Part shown: piece by piece, positions 3,566 to 63,959 of the stretch | How the letters are laid out: every line of letters starts with the position of its first letter | How positions within the stretch are numbered: position 1 is the stretch's first letter | Source: Candidatus Eiseniibacteriota bacterium | Lineage (GTDB): Bacteria; Eisenbacteria; RBG-16-71-46 | Length of the DNA: 64,000 nucleotides | Direction of reading: 5' to 3' | Assembly (NCBI GenBank): GCA_963707915.1 | Contig: OY970178.1 | Location: 192,001 to 256,000, forward strand | Made by a program: the position numbers and the translations under genes | The notes under the pieces: model-generated | Seen by the model: the letters and a program-made list of their open reading frames with translations, nothing else | The model's database searches: none | Told to the model about the DNA's origin: nothing

Positions 3566-6433
3566 ATGAGTGAGCGAAGCGCGGGCATGCACAGGGAATT
3601 CAAGGGCGCGAACCTCGTCGTGCCCGGGTTGCGCGAGTTGCTCGACGCCAGCCCGGACCTGCTCTTCGCCTGCGATGCCGACGGTGAACTGCTCTGGTTG
3701 AGCCGGGCCTTCGAGACGCTCACCGGGCGGGCGGCCGCCGACCACATCGGCCGGCACTGGTCCACGCTGGTCCCGCCGGAGCAGGCCCGCCGCGCCACGC
3801 GCATGGTCCTGCGCCAGCGTCGCCGGCGCACCGCGGTGATCGAGACCGCGCTGGCGCTGCTCGCGAGTGATGAACGCGAGGTCCGGGTCGCGGTGCGCGT
3901 GAGCCTGCTCGAGCGCGCGGATGGCGGCCTGATCTTCGTGGGCACGGCGCGCGGGCTCGAGGCCGGCGCGGACGCCGGGGTGACCACGCCGGCGGTCGCG
4001 GCCGGCGCGTCGCCCGCCCCATCACCCGCGCCCGCCGACGAGCCGGCGCCGGCGTGCCCCGCGGCGGCCACCGTGGCCGCACCCGACCCGGCGCCGGAGC
4101 CACCGGGCGAGCCGCGGCCGCGTCGCGGCCTCGCGTCCGCGTTCGCGTTCCTCGCGCGGGGCGCCAGGAGCGCGGCGGACGCGGCGCAGTCGCCCGGCGA
4201 CCCGGCCGTGCTCCCGGGCGAGGTCGAACGGTTGAGGGCCGAGTCCGCGGCCGCGCGCGCCGCGGCGCAGTCCAGCGGCGAACTGCTGGCGACCGTGACG
4301 CACGAGTTCCACACGCCCCTGAAGGGCATGATGGGCCTGGCCCAGCTGCTGCTCGAGACCGAGCTGGACCGCGACCAGCGGGGCATGGTCGAGGTGCTGC
4401 TCCACTCGGGCGAGTCGCTCCTCACCCTGGTGAACGACACGCTGGACTTCTCGCGGGCCGAGGCGGGCGAGCTCCGGCTGGAGCGCGTGCCGTTCGACCT
4501 GCGCGCCACGACCAACGAAGCCGGAGCGCTGCTGGCGCCGCTGGCGAACGCGAAACGCCTGCACTTCGAGTGCGCGATGCAGGAGGAGGTGCCGGCGGGG
4601 GTCTGGGGCGATCCCGGCCGACTGCGCCAGGTGCTGCTCAACCTCGGCGGCAACGCCATCCGGTTCACCGAGCGTGGGCGGGTCCGGCTGGCGGTCGAGC
4701 GGGTGCGCGAGGACGAGCGCGAGGTGACGCTGCGGTTCGAGTTCCAGGACACGGGCACCGGCATGACCGAGGAGCAGCGGGACCGCGTGTTCCAGGCCTT
4801 CCAGGCGACCGAAGCCGCGGGGGCCGGACGCCACGGGGGTACCGGCATGGGCCTGGTGGTCTCGAGCCGGCTGGTGTCCCTGATGGGAGGCGCGATCGGG
4901 GTGGAGAGCGCGCCGGGTCGCGGGAGCACGTTCTGGTTCGACATCGCGCTCGAGAAGCAACACGCTGCCGCGCCGGCGCCGAGCGCCGCGGTTTCGCATC
5001 CGAAGCTCGCAGGCGTGAGGGTGATGGTGGTGGATCCGTCGCCGACGATGCGGCGCTCGTACCTGGGCAGGCTCGAGGCCTGGGGATGCCGCGTCGAGCC
5101 GGCCGAGAACGCCGAAGTGGGGCTGGTGATGCTCCAGGAGGCGGCCGAGGCGGGCGATCCGTACCGGCTCGCCCTGATCGAGCGTCAGTTGCCGGGCATG
5201 GACGGAGAGGAGATGGGGACGGCGATCCGGGCCGACGGCGCCTGCGACCGCACGTTGACCGTGCTCATGACCTCGGCGGGCCGCCGCGGTGACGCCGCGC
5301 GGGCCCGGGGACGCGGCTTCGCGGCCTACCTGTCCAAGCCGATCGAGTGGGAGCAGCTGGCGACGGCGATGGCCGAGGTGCTGCGGCGGGCGGAGACCGC
5401 GGCCCCGGGCGCGACGCCCGAACTGGTCACGCTGCACTCGATGGCCGAGACGGAGCGGGGCGGCCTGCGCGTCCTGCTGGTCGAGGACAGCGCGGTGAAC
5501 CAGCTGGTCACGCAGTGGACGCTCAAGCGGCTGGGCTACGGCCTGCAGGTGGTGCCCACGGCGCGCGAGGCGCGCGAGGCCTGGAGGCGGGAGGCGTTCG
5601 ACCTGGTGCTGATGGACATCCGGCTGCCGGACGGCGACGGGTGCGATCTGGCGCGCGAGCTGCGCTCGTCCGAGGCGGCCGGCCGCCGGGTGCCGATCGT
5701 GGCCATGACCGGGAGCACCGGGCCCGGTGACCGCGAGCGGTGCATCGCGGCGGGGATGGACGAGTACCTCCCGAAGCCGCTGGACCTCGGCCTGCTGTGT
5801 CGCGTGGTCCGGAGTCTCACCGGCGGCGGGGTGGAGGCGGGCCGCGACGCGGCCGTCGCAGAGCCCCCGCCGGCCGCCCTCGATCCGGCGACGGCCGTCG
5901 TCGCCCCCGACGACGCGCCGTTCCTGCGCGAGATCGAGGCGGCCGAGGCGGAGTTCCTCGGGATGGACGGAGTGGTCCGGGTCGTGCCTGCCGCCCCGGT
6001 GCGGCCGAGGGTGGTCCCGCTCTCGAGCGCGGACGTCATGCCGCTGACCGAGGAGGCGCTGGAGGACGCGGGCGCGACCGACCTGCCCCGGCCGGCCATC
6101 GACCTGGCCCACCTCCAGCAGGCCAGCATGGGCATCCCGGCCCTGCGCGAGTCGCTGCTGGGAACCTTCCTCAACGACGTACGGCCGCGGCTCGAGCGGC
6201 TGGGGGTGGCGGTGAACGAGCGCGACGCCCAGCGGATCGAGCTCGAGGCGCACGGCCTGAAGGGCATGTGCGCCACCGTCGGCGCGACCGCCTGCGCCGA
6301 GCGGTTCGCGGAGCTCGAGCGCGCGGGGCGCGAGCAGGCCCTGGGCCTGGCGCCGACGCTGCTGAAGCGCGTGCACCTCGAGCTGACGCGCACCGAACGA
6401 TACATCACGACGATGGAGCGCCCGGCGGCCTGA
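3566..6433 (+). CDS. Hybrid sensor histidine kinase (PAS-HisKA-HATPase-REC-REC-Hpt)
   Basis: H-box THEFHTP, N-box LNLGGNAIRF, DTGTG and GTGMGL boxes, two receiver domains, Hpt AHGLKG; start placed at MSERS. Confidence 0.88.
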   Translation: MSERSAGMHREFKGANLVVPGLRELLDASPDLLFACDADGELLWLSRAFETLTGRAAADHIGRHWSTLVPPEQARRATRMVLRQRRRRTAVIETALALLASDEREVRVAVRVSLLERADGGLIFVGTARGLEAGADAGVTTPAVAAGASPAPSPAPADEPAPACPAAATVAAPDPAPEPPGEPRPRRGLASAFAFLARGARSAADAAQSPGDPAVLPGEVERLRAESAAARAAAQSSGELLATVTHEFHTPLKGMMGLAQLLLETELDRDQRGMVEVLLHSGESLLTLVNDTLDFSRAEAGELRLERVPFDLRATTNEAGALLAPLANAKRLHFECAMQEEVPAGVWGDPGRLRQVLLNLGGNAIRFTERGRVRLAVERVREDEREVTLRFEFQDTGTGMTEEQRDRVFQAFQATEAAGAGRHGGTGMGLVVSSRLVSLMGGAIGVESAPGRGSTFWFDIALEKQHAAAPAPSAAVSHPKLAGVRVMVVDPSPTMRRSYLGRLEAWGCRVEPAENAEVGLVMLQEAAEAGDPYRLALIERQLPGMDGEEMGTAIRADGACDRTLTVLMTSAGRRGDAARARGRGFAAYLSKPIEWEQLATAMAEVLRRAETAAPGATPELVTLHSMAETERGGLRVLLVEDSAVNQLVTQWTLKRLGYGLQVVPTAREAREAWRREAFDLVLMDIRLPDGDGCDLARELRSSEAAGRRVPIVAMTGSTGPGDRERCIAAGMDEYLPKPLDLGLLCRVVRSLTGGGVEAGRDAAVAEPPPAALDPATAVVAPDDAPFLREIEAAEAEFLGMDGVVRVVPAAPVRPRVVPLSSADVMPLTEEALEDAGATDLPRPAIDLAHLQQASMGIPALRESLLGTFLNDVRPRLERLGVAVNERDAQRIELEAHGLKGMCATVGATACAERFAELERAGREQALGLAPTLLKRVHLELTRTERYITTMERPAA

Positions 6434-49285: not shown

Positions 49286-50728
49286 ATGAAGCCGACGACG
49301 ATGCCAGTGACCGAAGCGAGACCGGAACCGCAGACGGGGGGCACGGGGGCCGCGGCGCCGAGGTTGACGGCCTGCCTGCTCGAGCGCGAGATCGGCCGGC
49401 CGGCCGCGGCCTGGACGGTGGACGACCTGCTGGCGCTCGCCGCCGGGCGCGGCGTGCGCCTGGTGAGCCTGATGCACGTGGGCGGCGACGGCTGCCTCAA
49501 GGTCCTGGACTTCGTGCCGCAGAGCCGCGAACACCTGCGCGACATCCTCTCCGGGGGCGAGCGGGCCGACGGCTCGAGCCTGTTCGCCGGGCTCGGTCTC
49601 GAGGTCGGGGCCTCGGACATCCTGCTGCGGCCGCGCGTCGAGACCGCATTCCTCGACCCGTTCGCGGCCCAGCCCACGCTGGCCTTGCTGTGCGGACACG
49701 CGGGGCGCGACGGCGACAGCCTGCCCCAGTCGCCCGACACCATCGTGCGGCGGGCCGCCGCGCGGACGGCGAGCGAACTGGACGTCGACCTGCACGCGCT
49801 GGGCGAGGTCGAGTACTTCCTCGGCCGTCGCGCGGGCGAGGAGGACGCCTACGGCGCGAACGACCGCGGCTACCACGCCACCTCGCCGTTCGTCTTCGGC
49901 GAGGCGCTGCGGCGCGAGGCCATGGCCCTGCTGGCCGAGATCGGCGTGCCGGTCAAGTACGGGCACAGCGAGGTGGGCTACGTCCAGGCCACCGAGTCGG
50001 ACGGGTACATCTGGGAGCAGCACGAGATCGAGCTCGGGCTCGCCCCGCTCGCCGCCGCCGCGGACGCGGTGGTGCTCACGCACTGGGTGCTGCGCAACCT
50101 CGCCTACCGCGAGGGCATGCGCTGCAGCTTCGATCCGATCCTGCGCCGCGGTCACGCCGGCACCGGCCTGCATTTCCATTTCTCGCCGGTCCGCGACGGG
50201 GCCCACCTCGGCGGGCGCGGTGCGGACGGGACGCTGAGCGCGCCCGCGCAGTGGCTGATCGCCGGGCTGGTGCGCATGGGCGGGGCGCTGATGGCGTTCG
50301 GCAACCGCACCGAGGGCTCGCTCATCCGCCTCACGCAGGCCAAGGAGGCGCCCAACACCATCGTCTGGGGCGAGTTCGACCGCAGCGCGCTGGTGCGGCT
50401 GCCGATCGTGGCGACGACCACCGACGGCCGCGCGGTCAGCCCGCCGACCATCGAGTTCCGGCTGCCCGACGGTTCGGCCCACCCGCACCTGCTGCTCGCG
50501 GGCGTCGCCCAGGTGATGATCGAGGCGCGCTCGGTCGGGCACCTCGAGGCGTTGCTCGAGCGCACCTCGGTGAAGGCGCTCAAGCGCGGGGCCGGGACCG
50601 CCACGCCCGTGCCGACGCGGTTCCTGGAGGTGGCGCAGGCGCTCCAGGCGAGCCGCTCCGCGCTCGAGGCCGGCGGGGTCTTCCCGCCGGTGCTGCTGGA
50701 TCGGTTCATCGAGCGGTTGAGGGCCTGA
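49286..50728 (+). CDS. glnA: Glutamine synthetase family protein (type I-like)
   Basis: DGSS, GEVEYF, HSEVG, QHEIE, GTGLHFH, RL...EAP, RSALVR and EFR.PD motifs. Confidence 0.82.
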   Translation: MKPTTMPVTEARPEPQTGGTGAAAPRLTACLLEREIGRPAAAWTVDDLLALAAGRGVRLVSLMHVGGDGCLKVLDFVPQSREHLRDILSGGERADGSSLFAGLGLEVGASDILLRPRVETAFLDPFAAQPTLALLCGHAGRDGDSLPQSPDTIVRRAAARTASELDVDLHALGEVEYFLGRRAGEEDAYGANDRGYHATSPFVFGEALRREAMALLAEIGVPVKYGHSEVGYVQATESDGYIWEQHEIELGLAPLAAAADAVVLTHWVLRNLAYREGMRCSFDPILRRGHAGTGLHFHFSPVRDGAHLGGRGADGTLSAPAQWLIAGLVRMGGALMAFGNRTEGSLIRLTQAKEAPNTIVWGEFDRSALVRLPIVATTTDGRAVSPPTIEFRLPDGSAHPHLLLAGVAQVMIEARSVGHLEALLERTSVKALKRGAGTATPVPTRFLEVAQALQASRSALEAGGVFPPVLLDRFIERLRA

Positions 50729-50838: not shown

Positions 50839-52190
50839 TCAGGCCTTGCCGGCCAGCGCCTCCTCGATGGTCGAGCAGTCCACCAGGCCGGCGCAGCCGT
50901 AGAGCACGGGCAGCAGCTTCGCGGGCGCGTGGCGGCGACGCAGGTCGGCGACCAGGTCGGTGCCGGCGCGGTAGCACGGCAGGTACATGCGCCCCATCAG
51001 CGGGTGCTTGCCCCACGCCCCGGCGAACTTGCCGGCGCGCTCCTCGGAGACCAGGAAGTCGCGCCGCAGCACCGGCGCCACCTCCTTCTCCGCCAGGCGC
51101 TCCTGCCACGTCAGGTACGAGGCCTGGTTCTTGGCGTCGTCCTGCAGCAGCGCCAGCAGCAGGCCGATCTTGAGGTCGTCGTCGGGGACCTGCTCCAGCT
51201 CGGTCACGCCGTGGGCGATGAGGATGGCGTTGTTGGCGATGCCCTCGGAGAGCGTGGCCCCGCGGGTGTTCATGGTGAGCACCGAGGCCTCGAAGCCGAT
51301 CTGCTTGCGCCAGTAGAGGTCCTGCAGGAACGCGAAGGTGGTGACGTGGCCGGGCACCACCTCGTGCGAGACCAACTGCTCGAACTCGGGCACCGTGATC
51401 TGGAGCGACGCGTTGATCTCGTACGAGGCCTCGTACTCCGGCCGGCCGCCGGGGCGGCGCTTGCGGCCCAGGTAGTTCATCGAGCCCGAGAACCATGCGT
51501 CCTTGATGGGCAGGAACTCGATGTTGTCCATCGGCACGTCGCCCATCTCGCTTGGCAGGAACGGGCGCAGGTTGCGCTCGGCCAGCGCGCGGTAGTGGGC
51601 GATGTAGGCGGCGCCGACCGACCGCACGCACGCCATCGGCACGTAGCGTGCGCCGCGCCAGGCGTCCACCGCGGCGAGCAGGTCGCGCGTCGCCCTTCGA
51701 CGGGTGGCCGACGCGGGCGAGCAGTTCCTGCACCTGGCCGCGCTTGGCCGCCGGGTCCGAGGGCGAGGGCGGCTGGCCGGTCGAGGCCAGCACGCAGCGC
51801 TCGTAGGGCACGGGCTGGCCCTTGCCGAGGATCTCCATCGCCAGGTCCCACATCACCTCGAAGCGACTCGGCCATCCCCGCGACGTAGCGCCCGCGCAGG
51901 CCGGGGAGCTCCTTCGCCTCGGCGCCGAGGGCGGCGATGGCGCCGCGCACGTCCACCGCGGCGAGGTAGGCCTCGATCGCGGCGCGGTCGGGCGCCTTCG
52001 CCGAGACCCCGCCGCCGTCGCGCACGGGCGCGGCGGTGGGGTGCGTGTAGGCGAGCGGCATGGGGGCGTCGGAGAACCACGAGTCGGCGATGAAGCGCCC
52101 CAGGCCGGAGGGGTTCATGACGTCGCCGCCCCACAGGGTGTCGATGCCGAGGACGGCGTTGGCGACGTGCTCGTCGAAGCGCTGGCTCAT
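50839..52190 (-). pseudogene. DUF885-like putative metallopeptidase with two +1 frameshifts (~51863, ~51685)
   Basis: Three ORF pieces join to 449 aa; HEVVPGH and LSEG motifs; GGAGG RBS. Confidence 0.65.
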
Positions 52191-52630: not shown

Positions 52631-55105
52631 TCACCTCGTATAGTCGGCACCCTGCTCCTGGAACTTTAGCTCCTCCTGGCGCGGCCCGGGCGACGGGCGG
52701 GCGGCCTGGGTCAACTGCTTGAGCACCACGACGGTCACGTCGTCGAGGGGTTGGTCGGTGAAGGCCTGGACCTCGGCCAGCAGCACCCGCAGGATCTCGG
52801 CCGCCCCCTTGCGGGCATTGGCCTCGAGTGCGCGGCGGACCCCCTCGGTGCCGAACTCCTCGTTGCCGCGCCGGGCCTCGGTCAGCCCGTCCGAGTAGAG
52901 CACCAGGATGTCGCCGGCCTCCAACTCGACGCTGTAGTCCTCGTACTGCGCCCGGGGAGCGACCCCGAGCAGGACGCCGCTCTGGCTCAACTCCTCGAAG
53001 CGGCCGTCGCGCCGTCGCAGCAGCGGCGGCGTGAGCCCCGCGTTGGCGAAGGTGAGCCGGGCGGGCCGCACGTCGACCCGGGCGCAGAGCAGGGCCACGA
53101 ACGCCTCCGGCTGGTTCAGCGCCACCAGGTCGCGGTTGAGGGCGGAGAGCAGCTTGCCGGGGGGGACGCCCTGGCGCGCCCGGTCGCGGAAGGCGGCGTG
53201 CGCCCAGGTCCCCATGAGCGCGGCGGGGATGCCCTTGCCGGCCGCGTCGCCCACCGCCAGCGTCACCACCGGGCCGGGGCTGCGAACGAAATCGTAGTAG
53301 TCGCCCCCGATCGACTCCGAGGAGAGCGCGGCGGCGGCGCAGTCGAGCGAGCGGAACACGGGCACGCGCCGCGGCAGCAGGTGCGCCTGGATGGCGCCGG
53401 CCCTGGAGAGTTCGCGACCCATCGAGCCGTGCGTGGTCGCCGCCGCGCGCAGGCGCGCGTTCTCGAGCAGCACCGCGAGGTGCCCCGAGAAGCGCTTCAG
53501 CTCGCGCTGCTCCTCGAGACCGAACCACGAGCCGCCCAGGCGCCGGCCCAGCAGCAGGCAATGCCGCAAGGTCCCGCCCACGGGCAGCAGCCACGCCACG
53601 CCCGAGCGCTCGAGCGCACGACGGTCGGGCGCCCGCAGGCGCAGCTCTTCGAGCGCCAGGACCCCGCCGCTCTCGGGCAGGGCGGCGGTGAAGTCGGTGT
53701 CCGGCGGGGGCACCGCGGTCGTCCCGGTCCGCCCGGCGGTGCGCAGCATCCCGCCGCGGGCGAGCTCGAGCGCCACGCAGCCCTCGAGGTGGAACGCCTC
53801 GGCCAGCGCCTCACAGGCGGCCCTGGCGACGTGGGCCGGGTCGTCGCGGTGCGCGGTGATCCGGCCGTCCAGCCGCTCGGTGGCGGTGGCCTCGTCGGGC
53901 ACGAAGCGCTGCCCGAGCGTGCGCAGCCAGCGGCTGGTCGGGCCGGCCACCGCGGCGGTGAGGGCCACGAAGGCCAGGCCGCCGCCGGCGAGACCGGAGC
54001 CCAGGTCCTGCCGCCATGCCCCGCCGAGCCACTCGCCGGCCATGTACACGGTCGCACCCACGATGGCCAGGGCGACGAGCACGACGCCGACGCGCAGGGC
54101 CACCCTGAACTCGAACACCCGGTGGACGGCCGTGGCCCAGGCGAAGGAGGCGGGCACGAGCAGGGTGAGGAGCACGGCGAGTCGCTCGCCCGGGGCGGGA
54201 CCGCCCGGCGAGAGATTGCGCACCGCGACCAGGGCGGCGAAGGGCAGTGCGCCGAGCATGGTTCCCGCCAGCGCGACGCGCAGGCGCCGTCGCGCGTCGG
54301 TGGTGGCCGCGCGACGATAGGAACCCGCGAACAGGACGAGCGCCGCCAGCAGGCCGAGCGCGAACCACAGGCCGGCGACGCCTTCGATCAACGCCTGCGC
54401 GGCGTCGGCCGGGGCCGGGAACACGGGCTCGGCCAGCATGATGAGGAACGACGCGCCGAAGAGCCCGGTGGCGATCCCGTAGGCGATGGAGGTGGCCGAT
54501 CGTAGGCGGCCCCGCGGCTGCCCCGATTCGGGGAACAGCGCGAAGAAGTGGATGAAGAGCGCGGGAAGGTAGAGCCCCACGCCGGTGTAGAGCGAATCGT
54601 AGAGCGCGCCCGAGGCCGCGCTGCTCAGGCGCGGCGGCGGGGCCAGCAGCCAGGCGAAGGCCACGCACAGGAGGAAGAAGGTGCGCGCCAGGCGATCGCG
54701 CCGCTCGCTCCAGACCCAGCCGCCGATCAGCACGAACCCCGACGCCACCGCCAGCAGGGCGGCCATCATGCGCCGCTCACCCTGGGGCAGGGGCTCGGGG
54801 ACCAGGCGGATGATGGCGATGCTGCTCCCGCGCTCGCGCAACAGGTCCATGGGTTGGCCCGGGGCCGTGTAGGCGAGCGGCGAGCGGGTGAACGGCGGTT
54901 GGCCGCTCAGGGGCAGCAACTGGTCGCCGTGGGCGAGCCCGGCACGCTCGGCGGGGCCGCCGGGGACCACGGCCGCCACGCGGTCGCCGCGCAGCACGAG
55001 TCCGGCGTAGGGCTGGTGGGGAAGGCTCAGGGCCGACAGGATCAGCCCGGTGGTGACCGGCACCAGCAACCAGGACAGGAGGGGTGACGAAGTGCCGCGA
55101 TCCAT
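52631..55105 (-). CDS. PDZ + multi-TM + SpoIIE (PP2C) phosphatase
   Basis: GGPAERAGL PDZ motif, TM segments, GGDYYD, GDAAGKG, SDGLTE and DDVT; GGAGG RBS. Confidence 0.85.
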   Translation of the reverse strand: MDRGTSSPLLSWLLVPVTTGLILSALSLPHQPYAGLVLRGDRVAAVVPGGPAERAGLAHGDQLLPLSGQPPFTRSPLAYTAPGQPMDLLRERGSSIAIIRLVPEPLPQGERRMMAALLAVASGFVLIGGWVWSERRDRLARTFFLLCVAFAWLLAPPPRLSSAASGALYDSLYTGVGLYLPALFIHFFALFPESGQPRGRLRSATSIAYGIATGLFGASFLIMLAEPVFPAPADAAQALIEGVAGLWFALGLLAALVLFAGSYRRAATTDARRRLRVALAGTMLGALPFAALVAVRNLSPGGPAPGERLAVLLTLLVPASFAWATAVHRVFEFRVALRVGVVLVALAIVGATVYMAGEWLGGAWRQDLGSGLAGGGLAFVALTAAVAGPTSRWLRTLGQRFVPDEATATERLDGRITAHRDDPAHVARAACEALAEAFHLEGCVALELARGGMLRTAGRTGTTAVPPPDTDFTAALPESGGVLALEELRLRAPDRRALERSGVAWLLPVGGTLRHCLLLGRRLGGSWFGLEEQRELKRFSGHLAVLLENARLRAAATTHGSMGRELSRAGAIQAHLLPRRVPVFRSLDCAAAALSSESIGGDYYDFVRSPGPVVTLAVGDAAGKGIPAALMGTWAHAAFRDRARQGVPPGKLLSALNRDLVALNQPEAFVALLCARVDVRPARLTFANAGLTPPLLRRRDGRFEELSQSGVLLGVAPRAQYEDYSVELEAGDILVLYSDGLTEARRGNEEFGTEGVRRALEANARKGAAEILRVLLAEVQAFTDQPLDDVTVVVLKQLTQAARPSPGPRQEELKFQEQGADYTR
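52641..52668 (-). promoter_or_regulatory. Possible sigma28-type promoter within the 3' end of the SpoIIE gene
   Basis: TAAA-N16-GCCGACTA, pointing at the sORF. Confidence 0.4.
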
Positions 55106-55258
55106 GCGGACCTCCCGGTGCGGTTCGTGGGCCGATGCGGTGTCGGGGCGGACTTGCGCGGCCGGCGCCACGTACAGACCGTGACAGGCTACCAACCGCC
55201 GGACGCCTGTCAATGCCTCATTTGCGCCGGTCGAGGGTCCCCGGGCGCGGCGCCGCGA

Positions 55259-56155
55259 CTAACTGCCGGACTCGACGCGCCGCTTGAGGATCTCCCAGCG
55301 CGCGTCCACCTCGTGCTGGAGCTGCCGCTCCTGCCCGGGAGCCAGGCCCGCAAAGCGGCCCTGGCGGCGGAAGCAGGGTGCGACCGGGTCGCCGGGGTGG
55401 TCGGCGGTGAGACGCCAGAGCTGCCCCTTCTCGACCTCGAAGAGCGGGAACAGGCGGGTCCGCACCGCCTGGCGCGCCAGGTCGATGGTCTCGTCATCGG
55501 AGATCCTCCAGCCCGGCGGGCAGGGCGCGAGGACGTGCAGGAACCTCGTGCCGCGGATGGCCCTGGCCTTCTGCACCTTCTCGACGAGGTCCACCGGGTG
55601 GGAGACCGAGGCGGTCGCCGCGTAGGGGATGCGGTGCGCGGCGAGGATGCCGACCAGGTCCTTCCCGAGGTGGGATGCCGGCGGGCCGGCCGGCCTGCCG
55701 GCACCTCGCATGCCCCACGGCAGGGCCGGGGAGCAATCGATCCCGGTGGCCATCCCGGCCTCGTCGTCGTGGCAGACGTAGAGGATGTCCTCGTTGCGCT
55801 CCGCCGCGCCCGACAGGGCCTGCAGTCCGGCACCGGAGGTGTCGCCGACATCCGCCCAGGCCAGCACGGTCGTGTCGCGATCGCCCCGCGCATCGAGCGC
55901 GGCACGGATGCCCGCGGCCGTGGCGGCGGCGGCCCCCGGTGCCATGCGCAGGTGCGGCACACCCAGCGCCGACATCGGCGCCGGGCCGGGGAGGACGGTC
56001 CAGCAGCACTCCGGCAGCGTGACGACGGTCTTCGGGCCGAGGGCCTTGAGCACGAGCCGCATGGCGATGCTGCCGCCGCAGCCCGGGCAGCCCACGTGCC
56101 CGGACGCCAACAGCTCGACGGCCGGGATGCTGTCCTTGATGACCGGCTGGCTCAC
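55259..56155 (-). CDS. PorB-like 2-oxoacid:ferredoxin oxidoreductase beta subunit with degenerate ThDP motif
   Basis: GH.GCPGCG, GLQALSGAAERNEDILYVC, IPYAATAS and PCPPGW; the GDG and DNEAYMNTG motifs are altered. Confidence 0.82.
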   Translation of the reverse strand: MSQPVIKDSIPAVELLASGHVGCPGCGGSIAMRLVLKALGPKTVVTLPECCWTVLPGPAPMSALGVPHLRMAPGAAAATAAGIRAALDARGDRDTTVLAWADVGDTSGAGLQALSGAAERNEDILYVCHDDEAGMATGIDCSPALPWGMRGAGRPAGPPASHLGKDLVGILAAHRIPYAATASVSHPVDLVEKVQKARAIRGTRFLHVLAPCPPGWRISDDETIDLARQAVRTRLFPLFEVEKGQLWRLTADHPGDPVAPCFRRQGRFAGLAPGQERQLQHEVDARWEILKRRVESGS

Positions 56156-57321
56156 GACTGCACCCCCACCCAGATGTCCTCGCGCTCGCCCGCCGCGGGG
56201 CGCTTCGCCGCGGTGCGCGCGCGTTCGATGCATTCGAGGACCGCCGCGCGGCCGGCGTCGCGGCCGCCCGGCCCGACGAGGCAGCCCTGGACTGAGGGGC
56301 GATGCGCGCCGTCGGCATCGTACAGGGCCGCGCGGGTCTCCCCGGCGAGGATGCCGCCGTGCCCGGGCGAGAAGTCGCGGTCGAGCACGACGACCTGCGG
56401 GGTGCCGGCGAGCGCGGTACGGAGCGCGGCGGCGGGGAAGGGGCGGAAGAGGCGCACCTTCACCAGCCCGACCTGCTCGCCCCGGGCGCGCAGCTCGTCC
56501 ACCACCTCGCGAGCCGCCGAGGCGACGGTGCCCGACACCACCAGCACCAGGTCCGCGCCCTCCGCCTGGTAGCTCTCGACGGCGCCGTAGCGCCGTCCGA
56601 AGCGGCGGCCCCAGTCCTCGTCCACGGCGGCGAGCGTCGCGAGCGCCTCCGCCATCGCCTGCTGGTGGCGATGCCGCTCCTCCGTGCCGGGCGCGGGGGG
56701 GACCAGCGGGCGGAGGCCATCGGCGTCTTTGGCGCCCGGCGGCCCGGCGCGGCGCCCCGGCAGGAAGGCATCCACGTCGGCCGGCTCGGGGACGACCACC
56801 GGGCCCTTGGCGGACGCGGCCGGGACGGCATCCAGGACGACCATGACCGGCAATTGCACGTTCTCGGCCAACTTGAAGGCCTGGATCGTGGAGTCGAGCG
56901 CTTCCTGGCCGCTCTCGCAGTGGATCTGGATCCAGCCGGTGTCGCGCTGCGCGAGGCCGCGGTCCGGCTCGGTCCACGCCACCCGGCCTCTTACCGAGGC
57001 GCCAGGGACGCTGGCCATCACGATCGGCAGCCGGGCCGCGGCCGCCCGGATCAGCAGCTCGTGCATGAGGGCCAGGCCCGGCGCCGAGGTCGCCGCGAAG
57101 GTGCGGGCCCCCGCGAACGACGCGCCGATGCTCGCCGCCAGGGCCGATGCGTCCGACTCGGCCCGGACCAGGCGCGCCTTCAGCTCCCCGGCCGCGCACC
57201 GCTCGCTCAACGACTCCAGGAGCACGGCCTGGGGCATGGCCGGGCAGGCCGCGACGACCTCGGCGCGAGCCAACTGCACGCCCCACGAGAAGGCCTGGCT
57301 GCCGGTGATGGCCGGCTTCAC
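56152..57321 (-). CDS. PorA-like alpha subunit with degenerate active site
   Basis: GARTFAATSAPGLALMHE, QRDTGWIQ, LPVMV and RLFRPFP; YPITP is replaced by CPAMP. Confidence 0.82.
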   Translation of the reverse strand: MKPAITGSQAFSWGVQLARAEVVAACPAMPQAVLLESLSERCAAGELKARLVRAESDASALAASIGASFAGARTFAATSAPGLALMHELLIRAAAARLPIVMASVPGASVRGRVAWTEPDRGLAQRDTGWIQIHCESGQEALDSTIQAFKLAENVQLPVMVVLDAVPAASAKGPVVVPEPADVDAFLPGRRAGPPGAKDADGLRPLVPPAPGTEERHRHQQAMAEALATLAAVDEDWGRRFGRRYGAVESYQAEGADLVLVVSGTVASAAREVVDELRARGEQVGLVKVRLFRPFPAAALRTALAGTPQVVVLDRDFSPGHGGILAGETRAALYDADGAHRPSVQGCLVGPGGRDAGRAAVLECIERARTAAKRPAAGEREDIWVGVQS

Positions 57322-59156
57322 GGCCGCTCCTCGAGCATGACCCTGGCGCCGCGCGGGCACTCCGCCACGCACAGGCCACAGCCCTTGCAGCACTGCTCGG
57401 AGAGGAGGACGCCGTGCCCGCCCGGGTTGCGCTGGATGGCCCGGTCGGGGCAGAAGGCGAGACACAGCTCGCACTCGTTGCAGACCCCGCATTCGAAGCA
57501 GCGGCGCGCCTCGGCGAGCGCCTCGTTGGCGGTGAGGCCGAGGTTGGCCTCGGCGAAGGTGGTGCGGCGCTCTTCGAAGGAACGGTGCCGGTCGGGCTTG
57601 CCGGGCACGCTCTTGAAGTGCGCCAGGTTGAGGCGCTCGAGCGGCACCACCTCGTTCACCGCGCCGGCGCGGCGCACCGGGTCGTCCCCCCGCCAGCGGG
57701 TGACGCTGAAGTTGCCGGTGCCGCCGTAGCGCAGCGCCCTCGATTCGACCTCGGGGAGGGTCTCGCCCGCCTTCCCGCGCAGGTAGCGGTCGATGCCGAT
57801 GGCCGCCCGCTTGCCCGAGCCGAGCGAGTGCGCCACGGTGCGGGTCTCGCCGGTGACGTCGCCCCCGGCGAAGAAGCCGGCGTGATTGGTGCTCCCGAAC
57901 TCGTCCACCTTGACGACGTAGCCCTTGCGCGTGATCTCCGCCGGCAGGAAGTCCAGGTCCGGCTCCTCGCCCAGCGCGGTGAGCAGGGTGTCCGCCGGGA
58001 GGACGAAGTTGCTGCCCGGGACCGGCAGCGCGCGACGTTCGCCGGATAGGCCCGCTTCGGCGGCGCGGGTGCGCATGCACTCGACGCCCACCAGGCGCGC
58101 CCGCGGCCGGTCGCGCTCGCTCTCGACGTACATGACGCGGATGGCCTCGATCGCCTCCTCCTGCTCGGCGTGCCCGGAGGTCTGCACGGCCACCGGCCAG
58201 GCCTCGAACTCGAAGCGGACGCCTTCGCGGACGGCCTCCTCGTAGGCCTCCGTGCTGGCCGAAAGGTCGGCGCGCGTGCCGTGGCAGACCACCACCGGCT
58301 CCGCGCCGAGCCGCAGCGCGGTGCGGGCGCAGTCCACCGCCGTGTCGGTGCCGCCGACCACCACGACCCGGTGCCCGACGGTGCCGCGGTCGGCGACCTT
58401 CGCCTCGCGCAGGAACTCGAGACCGGGCCGGACGTCCGCGGGGTCCTGGCCGGCGACCTCGAACGGCCGGTTCACGCGCGCGCCGCTCGCCAGGAAGATG
58501 GCGTCGTAGGCATCCATGTCCTTCCACGAGAGGTCTCCGCCGACGCGCACGCCACAGCGGATGGCGACTCCCTGCGAGCGGATGCGCTCGATCTCCCTCG
58601 CCAGCACCTCGCGGGGCAGGTGGTACTCGGGAATGCCGTAGCGCAGCGCCCCTCCCGGCTCGGGCTCGGCCTCGAACACCTCGACCGCGTAGCCGAGTCG
58701 GGCCAGGTGATACCCACAGGACAGGCCGGCCGGGCCCGAGCCCACGATGGCCACCCGCTCCCTGCGGGTGCGCGCCGGGATGGGCGCGTGGGCCTCGGGT
58801 TCGAGGTCGCCCAGCATGCGTTCGACCGCGTGGATGTTCACCGCCTCGTCGAAGAGCGCACGGTTGCAGGCGGACTGGCAGGGATGGTCGCAGACCCGCC
58901 CGCTGACCGCCGGCATCGGGTTCTCGCGCAGCAGCAGGTCGCGGGCCTCCACCACCCGGCCCTCGCGCAGCAGGTTCATGGCGCCCTCGATGTCCGCGCC
59001 GACCGGGCAGGCGGCGTTGCAGGGAGCGACCATGTCATGGTGGGCGGGCCGGTAGCGCTTCGGCTCGACGGCGCGCTTCGCGACGGCCGGGTCGGCGGCC
59101 GCGGAGACGGACGGCTCGCCCTTCCGGTTGCCGCGCCCGGCCTGATCGTCGCTCAA
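57318..59156 (-). CDS. GltD/SudA-like FAD/Fe-S oxidoreductase with C-terminal ferredoxin (PorD-like) domain
   Basis: PCNAACP, GRVCDHPCQSAC, VGSGPAG, FAGGD and C-terminal Cys clusters; TTG start after GGAGGTG (start uncertain). Confidence 0.82.
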   Translation of the reverse strand: MSDDQAGRGNRKGEPSVSAAADPAVAKRAVEPKRYRPAHHDMVAPCNAACPVGADIEGAMNLLREGRVVEARDLLLRENPMPAVSGRVCDHPCQSACNRALFDEAVNIHAVERMLGDLEPEAHAPIPARTRRERVAIVGSGPAGLSCGYHLARLGYAVEVFEAEPEPGGALRYGIPEYHLPREVLAREIERIRSQGVAIRCGVRVGGDLSWKDMDAYDAIFLASGARVNRPFEVAGQDPADVRPGLEFLREAKVADRGTVGHRVVVVGGTDTAVDCARTALRLGAEPVVVCHGTRADLSASTEAYEEAVREGVRFEFEAWPVAVQTSGHAEQEEAIEAIRVMYVESERDRPRARLVGVECMRTRAAEAGLSGERRALPVPGSNFVLPADTLLTALGEEPDLDFLPAEITRKGYVVKVDEFGSTNHAGFFAGGDVTGETRTVAHSLGSGKRAAIGIDRYLRGKAGETLPEVESRALRYGGTGNFSVTRWRGDDPVRRAGAVNEVVPLERLNLAHFKSVPGKPDRHRSFEERRTTFAEANLGLTANEALAEARRCFECGVCNECELCLAFCPDRAIQRNPGGHGVLLSEQCCKGCGLCVAECPRGARVMLEERP

Positions 59157-59258
59157 ACCGCACCTCCCGGTCACCGGTCCTCGCCGCTCCCCGCGCCACC
59201 CGGCGGGCGGATGCGATCCGCCGGCCGAGGGGGCTTCCTGGTGAAAGACCCCCACGAG

Positions 59259-59275
59259 CGCATGGTTCGTGCCAG
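59259..59275 (-). promoter_or_regulatory. Putative sigma54 (-24/-12) promoter
   Basis: CTGGCACGAACCATGCG: GG-N10-GC with TGGCACG, about 100 nt upstream of the oxidoreductase. Confidence 0.55.
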
Positions 59276-59549
59276 CGCGGCCACGGATGGTCGTGGCCTG
59301 GCCACGCCGGGAACCCGCTCCGGGAAGGCCGAATCCGCGCGCCTTGTGCCGGGGTCCCGGCCGCCGGGCGCGACCCCGTCGGGCCGCCCCGCTGCCAACC
59401 TGTCAGGCCGATGGCTCGGGCTGTCAGCCTTCTGCCGGCGTCTGCGACGGTGCGGACCGGGAGCGGCGCCCGGGGTTTGCACCTGGCCGGGTGGCCGCCT
59501 AGAGTGGATTCTCAGGGCCGCAAGCGGGCTCTGCGTCATCGGAGAGGCC

Positions 59550-60143
59550 ATGATCGCGTTCACCGAGGCAGCACGCCGGAAGGTCCTCGAGCTGCTGGCC
59601 GGCGAGGGTCGCCAGGGCTCGGCCCTGCGGTTCTCCATCAGCGGCCGCATGGGCGGCGTCTTCCAGTACCGGCTGGCCTTCGTGAAGCCGGACGAGCGCG
59701 ATCCGGGCGACATCCTCCAGGATGCCGGTGGCTTCCAGGTCGTGATGGACGCGCGCAGCGCGCCCCACCTCGACGGCACCGCCGTGGACTACGTCGAGGC
59801 CCCGTCGCACAGCGGGTTCAAGATCGACAACCCCAACCCGCTGTGGGCCGACCCGCTGGCGTCCGGGGTCCAGCGGCTCATCGACGAGGAGATCAACCCG
59901 GCCCTGGCCTCGCACGGCGGCTTCGTGCACCTGCTGGAGCTGCGCGAGGGCGTGGCCCACGTCGAACTCGGTGGCGGTTGCCAGGGCTGCGGGATGGCGC
60001 ACGTCACGCTCAAGCGGGGCATCGAGGCCCGCATCCGCGAGGCCTTCCCCGAGGTCCTCGAGGTGCTGGACGCGACCGACCACGCTGGCGGAGCGAAGCC
60101 CTACTTCCGCGGCTCGGAGTCCCGCGAGTCGCCCTACGCCTGA
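59550..60143 (+). CDS. nfuA: NfuA-type Fe-S cluster biogenesis protein
   Basis: Degenerate IscA-like N-domain plus NifU-C motif INPALASHGG...GGCQGCG. Confidence 0.88.
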   Translation: MIAFTEAARRKVLELLAGEGRQGSALRFSISGRMGGVFQYRLAFVKPDERDPGDILQDAGGFQVVMDARSAPHLDGTAVDYVEAPSHSGFKIDNPNPLWADPLASGVQRLIDEEINPALASHGGFVHLLELREGVAHVELGGGCQGCGMAHVTLKRGIEARIREAFPEVLEVLDATDHAGGAKPYFRGSESRESPYA

Positions 60144-60713: not shown

Positions 60714-63700
60714 TCAGAAGCCAGGTTGGAGCGAGAGCTCCCAGTACCAGCCCTGGCCGGGCCGGTCGTTGGGGTGGACCAGGTCGGCCTCGCCGATGGC
60801 GAAGCCGAACAGGTTGGCTCGCAGGGCGATGCCATAGCTCGTCACCGTCGAGCGTCGCGGGCCGAGGAAGGCGGGCTTGAACTCGCTCGTCCAGGCGGCG
60901 CCGGCGTCGAAGAATACCGCGGCCTCGATCGGGGGGACCGCCGGGGTGGGGTAGAGCCCGAGGGCCCCGAGCAACGGGATCCGCAATTCGACGTTGGCCA
61001 CGGCGAGCCGGCTGCCGAAGAGGCGATAGTAGACCGGCTCCACCGCGTCGTTGCTGTTGGTCACGTGGTTGCTGAAGGACGTGTAGTCGTAGCCGCGGAT
61101 CAGCCACGGGTCGCCGACGTACAGCGACGAGAGCCGCGGGTCCTCGGCCCCCGGGCCGTAGCGCCCGTAGTGGAGCGCCCGCCCGGCCAGGATGAGGGAG
61201 CGGCTCAGCCGCACGTAGCGCCGGTAGTCGGCGAGCGCGTCCCCGTAGTCGATGCTGCCACCGAGTCCCGTGACCTCGAAACGGTAGCGCTGGCCCATCA
61301 CCGGGCCGGTGCCCCCGAACACGCCGCTGTCGTGGACCAGCGCGACCCCGCCGCCGGCGAGGGTGAGGGACGGCGGATTGCCGTAGGGGTTGTTCACGGT
61401 CTTGTCGATGCTGCCGTTGTTGTCGTACGCGATGGTGCGGAGCCGGCTCGCGAAGGCGATGTTGCGCAGCCCGCCCGAGAACTCCACGCGCGAGAATCGG
61501 CTGAACGGGTAGGAGACGCTTCCCATCAGGGCGCGCTCGATCTGCCAGATCGTGAACTCGGAGTCCCGCGCGGTCTGGTCGAAATGGACCTGTTCCGGGT
61601 TGTAGTACTGCGTGATGTACGGGATCTGGCTGGCCTGCAGTCCCCAGTTCCAGCGCTGGCGCAGGTCCTGGTAGGCGACCGCCGCCGCGGTGTTGTTCAA
61701 CACGTTGCCGCCCACGTTGGTGACCTGCAGCAGGGTCACCATCTCGTGGTCGCCCAGCATGTCGCTCCAGTAGAGACCGGCGCCACCGCCGACGCCGACC
61801 CCGGAGGATCCGGCCGCCACCCCCAGGCTCGGCTGGGAGATGTAGTCGAGCGAAAGCCGCGGACGGTAGCGCGAGGAGGAGAAGCGCATGGTGTCCACCG
61901 CGGCGACGCCGACGCGGGCGGAGTCGGCCCAGGCGGCCCGGGGCCGTGGCGACGGCGGCAGGACCCCGGGGGCGCTCGCCGCGGAATTGCCGGCGGCCGC
62001 GGCGGCCAGCGAATCGCTCACCAGCGCGGACGCGACCGGCAGCGAGTCGCGCGCGGCGGACGGCACGGTGGCCGGCGCGGCGGCCAGCGAATCGCGCGCG
62101 GCGGAGAGCACGGTGGCCGGCGCGGCGGCCAGCGAATCGCGCGCGGCGGAGAGCACGGTGGCCGGCGCGGCGGCCAGCGAATCGCGCGGGATCCCCGCGA
62201 CGCGGCGCGCCTCGTCGAGGCGGAAGAGTTCGAAGTTGCCGGCGTCGTAGGCGCTGAAGACCACCTTCCCCGACCGGCGCGCGACCGTGAGGGCGGGGCT
62301 GAGGCGGGTGAGGCCCGACACGCCGGTCAGCAGGTTGGTGAGCGGCTCGATGCGGCCGCTCGCCAGGTCGATCCGGTAGAGGTCGGCGATCCCCTCGGGA
62401 TCTCCGACGAAGTACAGGCCGCGCCCGTCCGGGGTCCACTGGGGGTTGATGCTCTTGCCGGCCGGGAAGGTCTCGAGCGCGCGGATCGCGCCGCTCTCCG
62501 GGTCGATGGTCGCCAGGCGGTACTCGCCGTAGCGGGTGCTGTCCGAGACCGGACCGAAGCGGTCGGTGACGAACGCGATGGTCTTCCCGTCGGGTGACCA
62601 CGCGGGCTGCAGGTCCGCCCAGTCGTCGTGGGTGAGGCGCCGCGAAGCGCCGCTCTCGAGGTCGAGCACCCACAGGTCCGTCACGCCGTGCCCGAGCGCG
62701 GAGAAGGCGACGCGGCGGCCGTCGGGCGACCAGGTCGGATGGAAGACCTCGCCGAGGTCCGGGAAGGGCACGCGGCGCACGATGCGGCCACTCGCCATCT
62801 CCATCACCGAGAGCACCGGGCGGCCACGGTTCACGGCCGAGAACGCCAGGCGCGTGCCGTCGGGGCTCCACTCGCCGCCGGAGTTGACGAATCCCAGGTT
62901 CTGCATCTCCAGGTCCACGGTGCTGCGGGTGATCGCCCGCAGTACCTTCCCGCTCTCCGCGTCCGCGAGGTACATCTCGATCGACAACTGGCCGCGCTCC
63001 GAGAAGAAGACGATCTGCCGGCCGTCGGGGGAGAGCGCCGGTCCCAGGTTCATGCGGCCGCCGCCGTGCTTGGTGATCACGAGCGGGGTGGCGGCCTTGC
63101 GGATCGGCTCGGTCCGGCGGGCGAGCCGGCCCTCCCAGCTGCGCAAGGCCCGGTGCCACGACATGATGACCGAGTCGGCCGGCACGCCGAGCGTGCCCTG
63201 CAGCGCCTGGCGGACGTCACCCGAGCGGCCCGCCGCCTTCAGCAAGCGGGCCACGGCGTCCTCGCCGAAGCGGCCGGTCAGGTACGCCCACAGCGACTGC
63301 CCGTAGCGGTAGGGGAAGTAGCGCGAGTCCTCGAGCCGGCCGTACTTGGGGAGCCTGCCGGCCTGTGCCGCATCGCGCATCCACATGGCCGTGTGCGGGT
63401 CGTCGGCGCCGAGCGTCAGGTACTCGGCCATGCCTTCCATGAACCACAGGGGCAGCCGCGCGGCGGTGGTGAGCCCGAGGGTCTGAGAGCGGCCCTGGCC
63501 GACGACGTCGTACTGGAACGCGTGCACCAGCTCGTGGCCGATGACGTGGTCGGTCTCAGCGAGCGGACCGGCGAAGGGGACCACGATGCGGCGCTTGAGG
63601 GCCTCGGTCACGCCTCCCACGCCCTCGCCCAGGTCGCCGTAGATGGCGTTGGTCTGCTGGAAGGCCGGGTGGCTGGCGTAGAGGATCAGCGGCTGGCGGC

Positions 63701-63959
63701 GCGAGAGATCGTGCTGCAGGGCCTTCGAGATCCGCGCGTACCAGCGCTCCGCCATCCGCGCCGCCTCGGGCGCGATGTCCTGGGTCTCGGGGTAGTAGTA
63801 GATGTCGAAGTGCTCGGTCCTGAGCACCTGGAAGTCGAAGGCCTGGTAGCGGACCTTGTTCTGGCCGAAGTAGTCCTGGGCGCCGGCCAGCGGCGCGAGC
63901 ACGGCCGCCAGCGCGAGGCAGGCGATGAGCGGCGCGACCGGACGACGCCACGAAGACAT
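60714..63959 (-). CDS. Outer membrane protein: peptidase MA-like domain + PD40/TolB propeller + Omp85-like beta-barrel
   Basis: Signal peptide, HELVH and WFMEG, WSPDG repeats, IRGYD, terminal F. Confidence 0.82.
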   Translation of the reverse strand: MSSWRRPVAPLIACLALAAVLAPLAGAQDYFGQNKVRYQAFDFQVLRTEHFDIYYYPETQDIAPEAARMAERWYARISKALQHDLSRRQPLILYASHPAFQQTNAIYGDLGEGVGGVTEALKRRIVVPFAGPLAETDHVIGHELVHAFQYDVVGQGRSQTLGLTTAARLPLWFMEGMAEYLTLGADDPHTAMWMRDAAQAGRLPKYGRLEDSRYFPYRYGQSLWAYLTGRFGEDAVARLLKAAGRSGDVRQALQGTLGVPADSVIMSWHRALRSWEGRLARRTEPIRKAATPLVITKHGGGRMNLGPALSPDGRQIVFFSERGQLSIEMYLADAESGKVLRAITRSTVDLEMQNLGFVNSGGEWSPDGTRLAFSAVNRGRPVLSVMEMASGRIVRRVPFPDLGEVFHPTWSPDGRRVAFSALGHGVTDLWVLDLESGASRRLTHDDWADLQPAWSPDGKTIAFVTDRFGPVSDSTRYGEYRLATIDPESGAIRALETFPAGKSINPQWTPDGRGLYFVGDPEGIADLYRIDLASGRIEPLTNLLTGVSGLTRLSPALTVARRSGKVVFSAYDAGNFELFRLDEARRVAGIPRDSLAAAPATVLSAARDSLAAAPATVLSAARDSLAAAPATVPSAARDSLPVASALVSDSLAAAAAGNSAASAPGVLPPSPRPRAAWADSARVGVAAVDTMRFSSSRYRPRLSLDYISQPSLGVAAGSSGVGVGGGAGLYWSDMLGDHEMVTLLQVTNVGGNVLNNTAAAVAYQDLRQRWNWGLQASQIPYITQYYNPEQVHFDQTARDSEFTIWQIERALMGSVSYPFSRFSRVEFSGGLRNIAFASRLRTIAYDNNGSIDKTVNNPYGNPPSLTLAGGGVALVHDSGVFGGTGPVMGQRYRFEVTGLGGSIDYGDALADYRRYVRLSRSLILAGRALHYGRYGPGAEDPRLSSLYVGDPWLIRGYDYTSFSNHVTNSNDAVEPVYYRLFGSRLAVANVELRIPLLGALGLYPTPAVPPIEAAVFFDAGAAWTSEFKPAFLGPRRSTVTSYGIALRANLFGFAIGEADLVHPNDRPGQGWYWELSLQPGF
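62041..62188. repeat. In-frame 45-bp tandem repeat, about 3.3 copies
   Basis: Encodes RDSLAAAPATVLSAA; CAGCGAATCGCGCG recurs at 45-nt spacing. Confidence 0.85.

Follow-up and report, generated by a model that had tools for sequence, protein, structure and literature searches.

Why would a bacterium keep open three coupled genes for a 2-oxoacid:ferredoxin oxidoreductase (OFOR) that has lost the residues expected for 2-oxoacid chemistry, and which of the three products is being maintained? This question is raised by an operon on the minus strand at 55259..59275 of the window, by which we mean the whole 64,000-nucleotide stretch of contig OY970178.1 (Candidatus Eiseniibacteriota) that was analysed. 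Our preferred interpretation, to which we assign a probability of roughly 0.6, is that the operon is an OFOR cluster stripped of its gamma subunit, in which the alpha and beta subunits (PorA and PorB) would be catalytically dead structural partners of a DsrL-like flavoprotein that are shed stepwise; the flavoprotein is likely the function being kept. The operon consists of three stop-free open reading frames (ORFs), each pair joined by a 4-nt overlap in the order flavoprotein, porA, porB, and the ORFs and their overlaps agree with a first-pass annotation made from the letters of the window.

57318..59156, minus strand: DsrL-like flavoprotein with FAD and 4x[4Fe-4S] (612 aa; TTG start at 59156), in which an inserted GltD-type body separates the N-terminal motif of PorD (delta) from its ferredoxin domain; cluster cysteines present, N-terminal TGSWKY delta motif eroded, nucleotide site GGTD/CHG
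56152..57321, minus strand: PorA-derived putative pseudoenzyme (389 aa); Y26C, I28A, T29M, E57D, R107G
55259..56155, minus strand: PorB-derived putative pseudoenzyme (298 aa); G102D, D103V, N131D, N136A; C23, C26, C51 and C212 retained, H129 and C141 new

Below, G denotes the flavoprotein gene, A* and B* (products PorA* and PorB*) the altered porA and porB, and C-G-A-B the canonical order.

Every motif reading of the first-pass annotation was reproduced in all three subunits. In PorA, YPITP has become CPAMP, ESEH has become ESDA and the arginine is missing at the NRA site (N106P, R107G). PorB reads DVGD for GDGG and HDDEAGMATG for YDNEAYMNTG, with CPGC, CC and PCP retained, and the flavoprotein reads GGTD and CHG, with its FAD motif and cluster cysteines retained. 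Cofactor contacts were assigned from these motifs and from PMC5020499. At the substrate and thiamine diphosphate (ThDP) positions named in the literature, the residue occurs in 114-115 of the 115 canonical rows of PorA and in all 92 of those of PorB; the substrate threonine of YPITP occurs in 115/115, and the GDG...N Mg/diphosphate motif of PorB, changed here, is invariant in 92/92. R107G and E57D are seen in this genome; the arginine and glutamate are present in the four other altered PorA proteins and in all 115 canonical rows. The arginine is the substrate residue Arg114 of D. africanus numbering, and we take the ThDP-activating glutamate to be Glu64 of the D. africanus enzyme. As had been noted, the cluster cysteines of PorB survive: all four proximal-cluster residues (C23, C26, C51 and C212) are present, of which C51 and C212 are presumably cluster ligands. 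The CXGC loop is described in PMC5020499 as both cluster ligand and ferredoxin-docking surface.

With Pfam and NCBIfam, two of the proteins were identified as PorA and PorB and the third as a PRK12771-like flavoprotein whose C-terminal part is a PorD-like ferredoxin; every PorA, PorB and PRK12771 NCBIfam score fell below its cut-off (PRK12771, E 2e-147). The closest solved chains were those of the pyruvate:ferredoxin oxidoreductase (PFOR) of M. acetivorans and the oxalate oxidoreductase (OOR) of M. thermoacetica (phmmer 1e-67 for PorA and 2e-52 for PorB against 9bt4-type PFOR). The PorB model retains the OFOR beta fold (pLDDT 78.6; Foldseek top match 9bt4_C, TM 0.77), with the ThDP loop at residues 134-158 under pLDDT 50, and an ESM Atlas search returned ordinary PorB clusters only. 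PFOR cannot function without domains I, II, III and VI (PMC13768988), and single mutants in YPITP or at the arginine lose activity or kcat (PMC5020499). Because the altered complex has no domain III (CoA), no Thr/Arg (substrate), no Glu (ThDP activation) and no Asp/Asn (Mg), 2-oxoacid chemistry by it is very unlikely.

The host genome is a single 3.62-Mb contig. A search with a relative's PorC located the cognate porC neither at the locus nor elsewhere in this contig; the best match (E 1.5e-17) lies inside another OFOR locus, and all five POR-domain matches belong to other loci. The reported absence of a nearby gamma subunit (PorC) therefore extends to the whole genome. A close canonical porA/porB paralogue was likewise not found in the genome, where the other OFOR alpha and beta matches are 23-27% identical, and we thus rejected the idea that the locus is a spare copy beside such a paralogue. 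Genome-wide loss of ThDP motifs was also rejected, since the other OFOR loci retain YPITP (2), YPGTP (1) and GDGD (2). Three more OFOR gene sets lie clustered with a ferredoxin-type membrane-complex gene in the same genome (G000:C1 2020000-2066000). Assembly error was rejected for the stretches holding CPAMP (57184-57502) and Arg107 (56870-57030), where contigs from two studies showed 0 differences; one of these runs may itself be the source sample, and the listed matching pieces do not extend over the DVGD site. None of the data sets listed as holding the sequence was of RNA. A link to the presence of an E1-type dehydrogenase was uninformative, as 59 of 61 genomes carry one.

Relatives share the altered state. 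The homologues are labelled Ca. Eisenbacteria by their sources, a lineage of uncultured sediment and soil bacteria. Among 61 genomes searched, 21 besides this one encode a close PorB (E < 1e-80), canonical in 17 and altered in 4. The canonical operon in relatives comprises porC, a delta/flavoprotein fusion (G), porA and porB, and the cognate porC was found in 17/17 genomes with canonical porA/porB and in 0/5 with altered porB. An order-wide search matched 36 of 102 genomes; of the 29 loci examined, 27 had canonical forms of both genes, and the remaining two were those of this genome and G004. Among the best 120 matches listed for each protein, five PorA proteins (this one included) are altered, all with Y26C and with further changes that differ, and 30 PorB proteins are altered, or 32 of 125 rows once two locus-derived rows are added. 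As the first-pass annotation had proposed, the loss is therefore not that of a private, young decaying duplicate.

Within the genus, four states are represented by extant genomes and loci. G001 and G002 are intact (C-G-A-B). This genome and the metagenome loci L051 and L052 carry G-A*-B*, without porC. In G003, G004, G005 and G007, altered porB directly follows G, porA having been deleted. In G006 only G is left, on a contig that reaches from spoIIE to nfuA and carries a DUF4920 gene in place of porA/porB. In G004 and G005, 25 in-frame codons of porA have survived the deletion together with both 4-nt overlaps, which keeps porB translation coupled. The flavoprotein gene is the only one present in all eight genus members, which is why we read PorA* and PorB* as dead subunits supporting its delta part. 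The earlier proposal of a three-subunit electron wire is not supported: with porA deleted in four genomes and both porA and porB in a fifth, these subunits are dispensable in relatives and the wire is not the conserved unit. On the evidence of its relatives, the operon is a real, lineage-wide OFOR-family pseudoenzyme variant, caught mid-way in a four-state series.

Phylogenies leave the altered state compatible with one or two origins. The 32 altered rows form one side of a branch in the PorB tree (support 77), and the G nucleotide tree groups the altered members (support 92-96). The G protein tree needs two changes, yet one clade was not rejected (p-AU 0.43), and the rpoB tree fails to place G003 (support 62-70). 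G004 and G005, which share one porA deletion, are grouped by rpoB and porB, not by G or the flanking genes.

We found that selection acts differently on the fold and on the active site. Whole-tree omega (dN/dS) was 0.062 for canonical versus 0.203 for altered PorB, 0.079 versus 0.285 for PorA, and 0.137 versus 0.136 for G (neighbouring genes, 0.07-0.17); in G003, G006 and G007, the omega of G was 0.12-0.24. On the branch leading to this genome, PorB omega was 0.27 under F3X4 and 0.52 under F1X4, both below 1 (2dL 18.5 and 6.1). Changes on this branch at positions invariant in canonical rows were compared with a neutral simulation tuned to fourfold sites under three GC settings. Active-site invariants of PorA changed at the neutral rate (24/48; neutral 24.5-30), and so did those of PorB (12/31; neutral 14-16). 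Far fewer of the other invariants changed, 23/136 in PorA (neutral 66-79) and 7/94 in PorB (neutral 41-50), and hydrophobic residues were retained at 0.82 (PorA) and 0.96 (PorB) versus 0.41-0.66 under neutrality. Using only residues named in PMC5020499, mapped by motif, 9/12 had changed versus 78/319 other invariants (p 4.6e-4). Selection on PorB continues after loss of porA (41/247 changed versus 108-121 under neutrality, and 44/247 versus 148-167). Change stayed far below neutral in three altered-porB pairs other than this branch. Fold positions of PorA are under purifying selection, yet PorA is the most relaxed of the three genes. Because active-site change is neutral while other invariants are conserved and the cluster cysteines kept, we regard PorA and PorB as pseudoenzymes by sequence, likely kept as structural partners. 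These data uphold the suggestion of selective loss rather than random decay and, together with the shared substitutions, speak against a decaying duplicate, less strongly for PorA under F1X4.

These results can be accommodated in a stepwise model. PorB* likely still binds its [4Fe-4S] cluster and would cover the ferredoxin domain of the flavoprotein, as beta covers delta in solved OFORs; PorA* likely persists only as a cover for PorB*. If the partners only cover one another, each can be shed once compensating changes arise. A marker of such change may be PorB residue Gly116 (G116), which is present in 8/8 rows of the group to which the known PorA-bearing members belong and is substituted in the 24 remaining rows, in a comparison whose protein-only rows are mostly without porA context. 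The staged loss within the genus runs from C-G-A-B through G-A*-B* and G-B* to G alone. Electron transfer by the flavoprotein most likely connects NAD(H), in place of NADP(H), with ferredoxin or a different acceptor. It might, for instance, balance the ferredoxin of the other OFORs in the genome, which are intact; which nucleotide it uses is the weakest point of this model.

The domain order of the flavoprotein matches that of DsrL (ferredoxin, FAD with the NAD(P) domain, linker, ferredoxin), with all cluster cysteines, which are also present in G006. It is without the YRR and GGGN of the NADP(H)-specific GltD/NfnB/DsrL-2 type, motifs found in 51 and 50, respectively, of the 54 most distant listed homologues. 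The first-pass annotation had assigned this change to the same loss event as those in PorA and PorB. We found otherwise: GGTD occurs in 31/32 and CQG in 30/32 genus-level flavoproteins, and both are already present in POR-intact G001 and G002, so they are older than, and separate from, the pseudoenzyme event. YRR and GGGN are indeed gone, as annotated, but the conclusion that the NADPH site is lost does not follow, since YRR loss in DsrL goes with NAD(H) use rather than site loss (PMC7596348); the lost NADPH site may thus be a cofactor switch. Sixteen flavoproteins without the delta TGSWKY motif were compared by mean identity, domain by domain. The delta N-terminal motif (0.40 versus 0.89) and the ferredoxin domain (0.71 versus 0.87) were relaxed, and the FAD (0.80 versus 0.79) and nucleotide (0.76 versus 0.76) domains were not. 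The mirror image is seen in 34 further homologues of POR-intact type (e.g. in G008, G024, G029 and G039), in which the nucleotide motif drifts into nine forms and the delta parts are conserved. One genus-level flavoprotein (P0273, 550 aa) stops before the C-terminal ferredoxin domain, reflecting either further reduction or a truncated assembly.

Several observations weigh against the stepwise model. On this genome's branch, PorA omega is 0.34 under F3X4 (2dL 26) and 0.76 under F1X4 (2dL 1.9), the latter indistinguishable from 1, so that PorA may be near free decay. The active-site segments were hand-drawn from motifs after the alignments had been seen, and the literature-only residue test is smaller than the segment test. 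The protein searches list intact ORFs only, and broken copies would be missed; a six-frame genome search found no stops in 5/5 altered porB genes. The G gene of G004 carries a frameshift, although neighbouring genes in that assembly are frameshifted too. The second glycine of the nucleotide motif is a threonine, which together with the motif drift in 34 relatives means that the flavoprotein may bind no nicotinamide. Lastly, C141 and H129 are invariant in a 22-member PorB subclade, which is more than passive cover requires.

This last observation underlies the best-surviving alternative, that PorB*, with ThDP and alpha gone, has taken on a new redox function in which its cluster, now ligated by C141 (perhaps together with H129), is a new electron entry or metal site, and that G and B* form a new two-subunit oxidoreductase rather than a remnant. 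We consider this unlikely. C23, C26 and C212 are present in 32/32 altered PorBs. C51 is lost in 22/22 members of the subclade that holds G004 and G005 (72-87% identical), where C141, H129 and P142 are invariant and the neighbouring position 139 has 10 residue types; none of the 32 is without both C51 and C141, and the PorB of this genome has both. A swap of cluster ligand from C51 to C141 is possible, and the translational coupling of porB preserved at the porA deletion also favours a new role. A specific form of this idea, in which a beta subunit without ThDP and alpha, with the ligand moved from C51 to C141 and with His129, acts as the electron port of the DsrL-like flavoprotein and this genome is an intermediate, is at best tentative. 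However, the swap may be a single event on one branch, merely keeping a structural cluster; G006 has lost porB entirely with G still under selection; and G003 and G007 keep C51 and are without C141 and H129. The swap presupposes that C141 lies near the cluster; the low-confidence structure model of the 22-member subclade (pLDDT 41.7) was not used.

Slow neutral decay of porA and porB after loss of porC, with the frames left open by chance, GC bias and coupling, is an improbable alternative and, for porB, is already largely refuted. It would fit the three- to fourfold rise in omega, the F1X4 estimate for PorA, the repeated deletion of porA and the single deletion of porB. A GC-biased neutral model also predicts few stops (0.5-3.3 per gene). 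Against it, many more hydrophobic residues and invariants outside the active site are retained than neutrality predicts under all three GC settings, the three other altered-porB pairs behave alike and three cysteines are kept in 32/32. Nor does polarity give porB, the last gene, a reason to stay open, since spoIIE has a promoter-like site of its own, as listed here with the other flanking features.

59260..59274, minus strand: sigma54-type -24/-12 site, TGGCAC-N6-TGC; core invariant in 8/8 aligned loci and present in G006
59400..59427, minus strand: CTGACAG-N14-CTGACAG repeat, ~125 bp upstream of the -24 site
55186..55213, minus strand: sigma70-type promoter-like TTGACA-N16-TAGCCT before spoIIE; both hexamers invariant in 8/8 loci, POR-intact included
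52631..55105, minus strand: spoIIE (PDZ, membrane and SpoIIE phosphatase parts), a neighbour also in POR-intact genus members
59550..60143, plus strand: nfuA (NifU and Fe-S_biosyn), divergent neighbour

The sigma54-like promoter of the first-pass annotation proved to be conserved, in a genome that encodes rpoN and 17 strong sigma54-activator matches. The CTGACAG repeat, a likely activator-binding enhancer, occurs as a single copy in the genome, in 8/8 aligned loci (8 of 63 loci) and in G006. A consensus scan for sigma70 promoters and terminators found nothing, the TAGCCT hexamer being below its threshold. The divergent nfuA and same-strand spoIIE were confirmed as neighbours, but the proposed link to SpoIIE is weak, since its own promoter-like site, invariant in 8/8 loci, argues against a shared transcript and against polarity keeping porB open. 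A redox-sensing three-subunit complex, signalling to SpoIIE or reporting Fe-S status with NfuA, has little probability. Adjacency to spoIIE and nfuA, the retained cluster cysteines and the conserved sigma54-type promoter would all fit such a sensor. However, the operons of the POR-intact G001 and G002 also adjoin spoIIE, which has its own promoter-like site, relatives that retain spoIIE can do without porA and porB, and neither spoIIE nor nfuA was matched in the fetched flanks of 13 other-genus loci, some of whose contigs end early. We conclude that spoIIE is probably not part of the system. In G001 and G002, a cytochrome c gene (in G001 together with a further gene) separates nfuA from porC. 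The di-haem cytochrome c gene before porC in these genomes (L032 7052-7801, minus strand; L033 ~4700-5500) is absent at altered loci.

A still-active ThDP enzyme with a new substrate is barely credible: the beta fold is kept, and OOR, in which YPITP became YPIRP (PMC5020499), is a precedent for a motif that shifts with substrate, but here the Mg Asp/Asn and the activating Glu are changed, not merely substrate residues, the replacements differ between lineages (six residue types at D103 and six at N131), the change is at the neutral rate, gamma has been lost and relatives have deleted alpha.

Other genes, in the window and in relatives, yielded further observations. A 276-aa ORF (50839-51669, minus strand) matched no Pfam family over cut-off (weak DUF885, E 0.003) but shows strong conservation within the genus, at 83-92% identity and an omega of 0.07. 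A glutamine synthetase-like gene (49286-50728, plus strand) directly follows a GatD-like gene, the latter named by reading the sequence. At the G004 locus (L031), the flavoprotein gene, the glnA-like gene and the gene for the 276-aa protein are all frameshifted in the same assembly, likely through read errors. The ORF at 60714-63959 (minus strand) encodes a 1081-aa protein with peptidase-like, beta-propeller and Omp85 domains. It contains RDSL-AAAPATV repeated three times, a repeat that relatives carry in shorter form or lack.

Extant genomes represent every stage at which a multi-subunit metalloenzyme is taken apart, from the intact form, through one that retains dead subunits and one that has shed the first of them, to one that has shed both. 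The series makes it directly testable whether dead subunits are kept by structural dependence, and how a DsrL-like flavoprotein that stands alone can emerge from the delta subunit of a PFOR. It also provides a candidate for a ligand swap in nature at a [4Fe-4S] cluster. These proteins carry annotations as subunits of pyruvate/2-oxoacid oxidoreductases, so metabolic reconstructions probably credit the lineage with this activity too often.

Pseudoenzymes are defined by the loss of conserved catalytic motifs and can have scaffold roles (PMC10211241); that review contains 0 occurrences of thiamin, ferredoxin or iron-sulfur. We found no OFOR pseudoenzyme in the literature searched by title and abstract start, a body that most subscription papers lie outside. 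With PFOR and 2-ketoisovalerate oxidoreductase (VOR) of the PorCDAB type (e.g. M. acetivorans, PDB 9bt4), the operon shares the alpha and beta folds, the proximal-cluster cysteines and the ancestral order porC-porD-porA-porB (PMC13768988). It differs in that gamma/domain III is gone, that the YPITP Thr, the Glu, the Arg, the GDG Asp and the Asn are changed, and that delta carries an inserted flavoprotein. Phenylglyoxylate:NAD+ oxidoreductase (Pad) is an active ThDP-dependent OFOR with a nicotinamide-linked flavoprotein, in separate subunits; the PadG and PadI models match PorA and PorB here, below cut-off only. The flavoprotein resembles DsrL as described in PMC7596348, with the shared order of N-terminal Fe-S, FAD with embedded nucleotide domain, linker and C-terminal 2x[4Fe-4S] ferredoxin, and, as in the NAD(H)-using DsrL-1, its YRR is replaced. 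Unlike DsrL, its gene lies in an OFOR cluster and overlaps porA, and the second Gly of its nucleotide motif is Thr; the definition of DsrL in that source excluded genes linked to pyruvate/ketoisovalerate oxidoreductases. The direct ancestor would be an intact OFOR cluster with a PRK12771-type flavoprotein fused into delta, of which there are 17 operons among the searched relatives; compared with these, the catalytic half here is dead or deleted, and the flavoprotein is kept.

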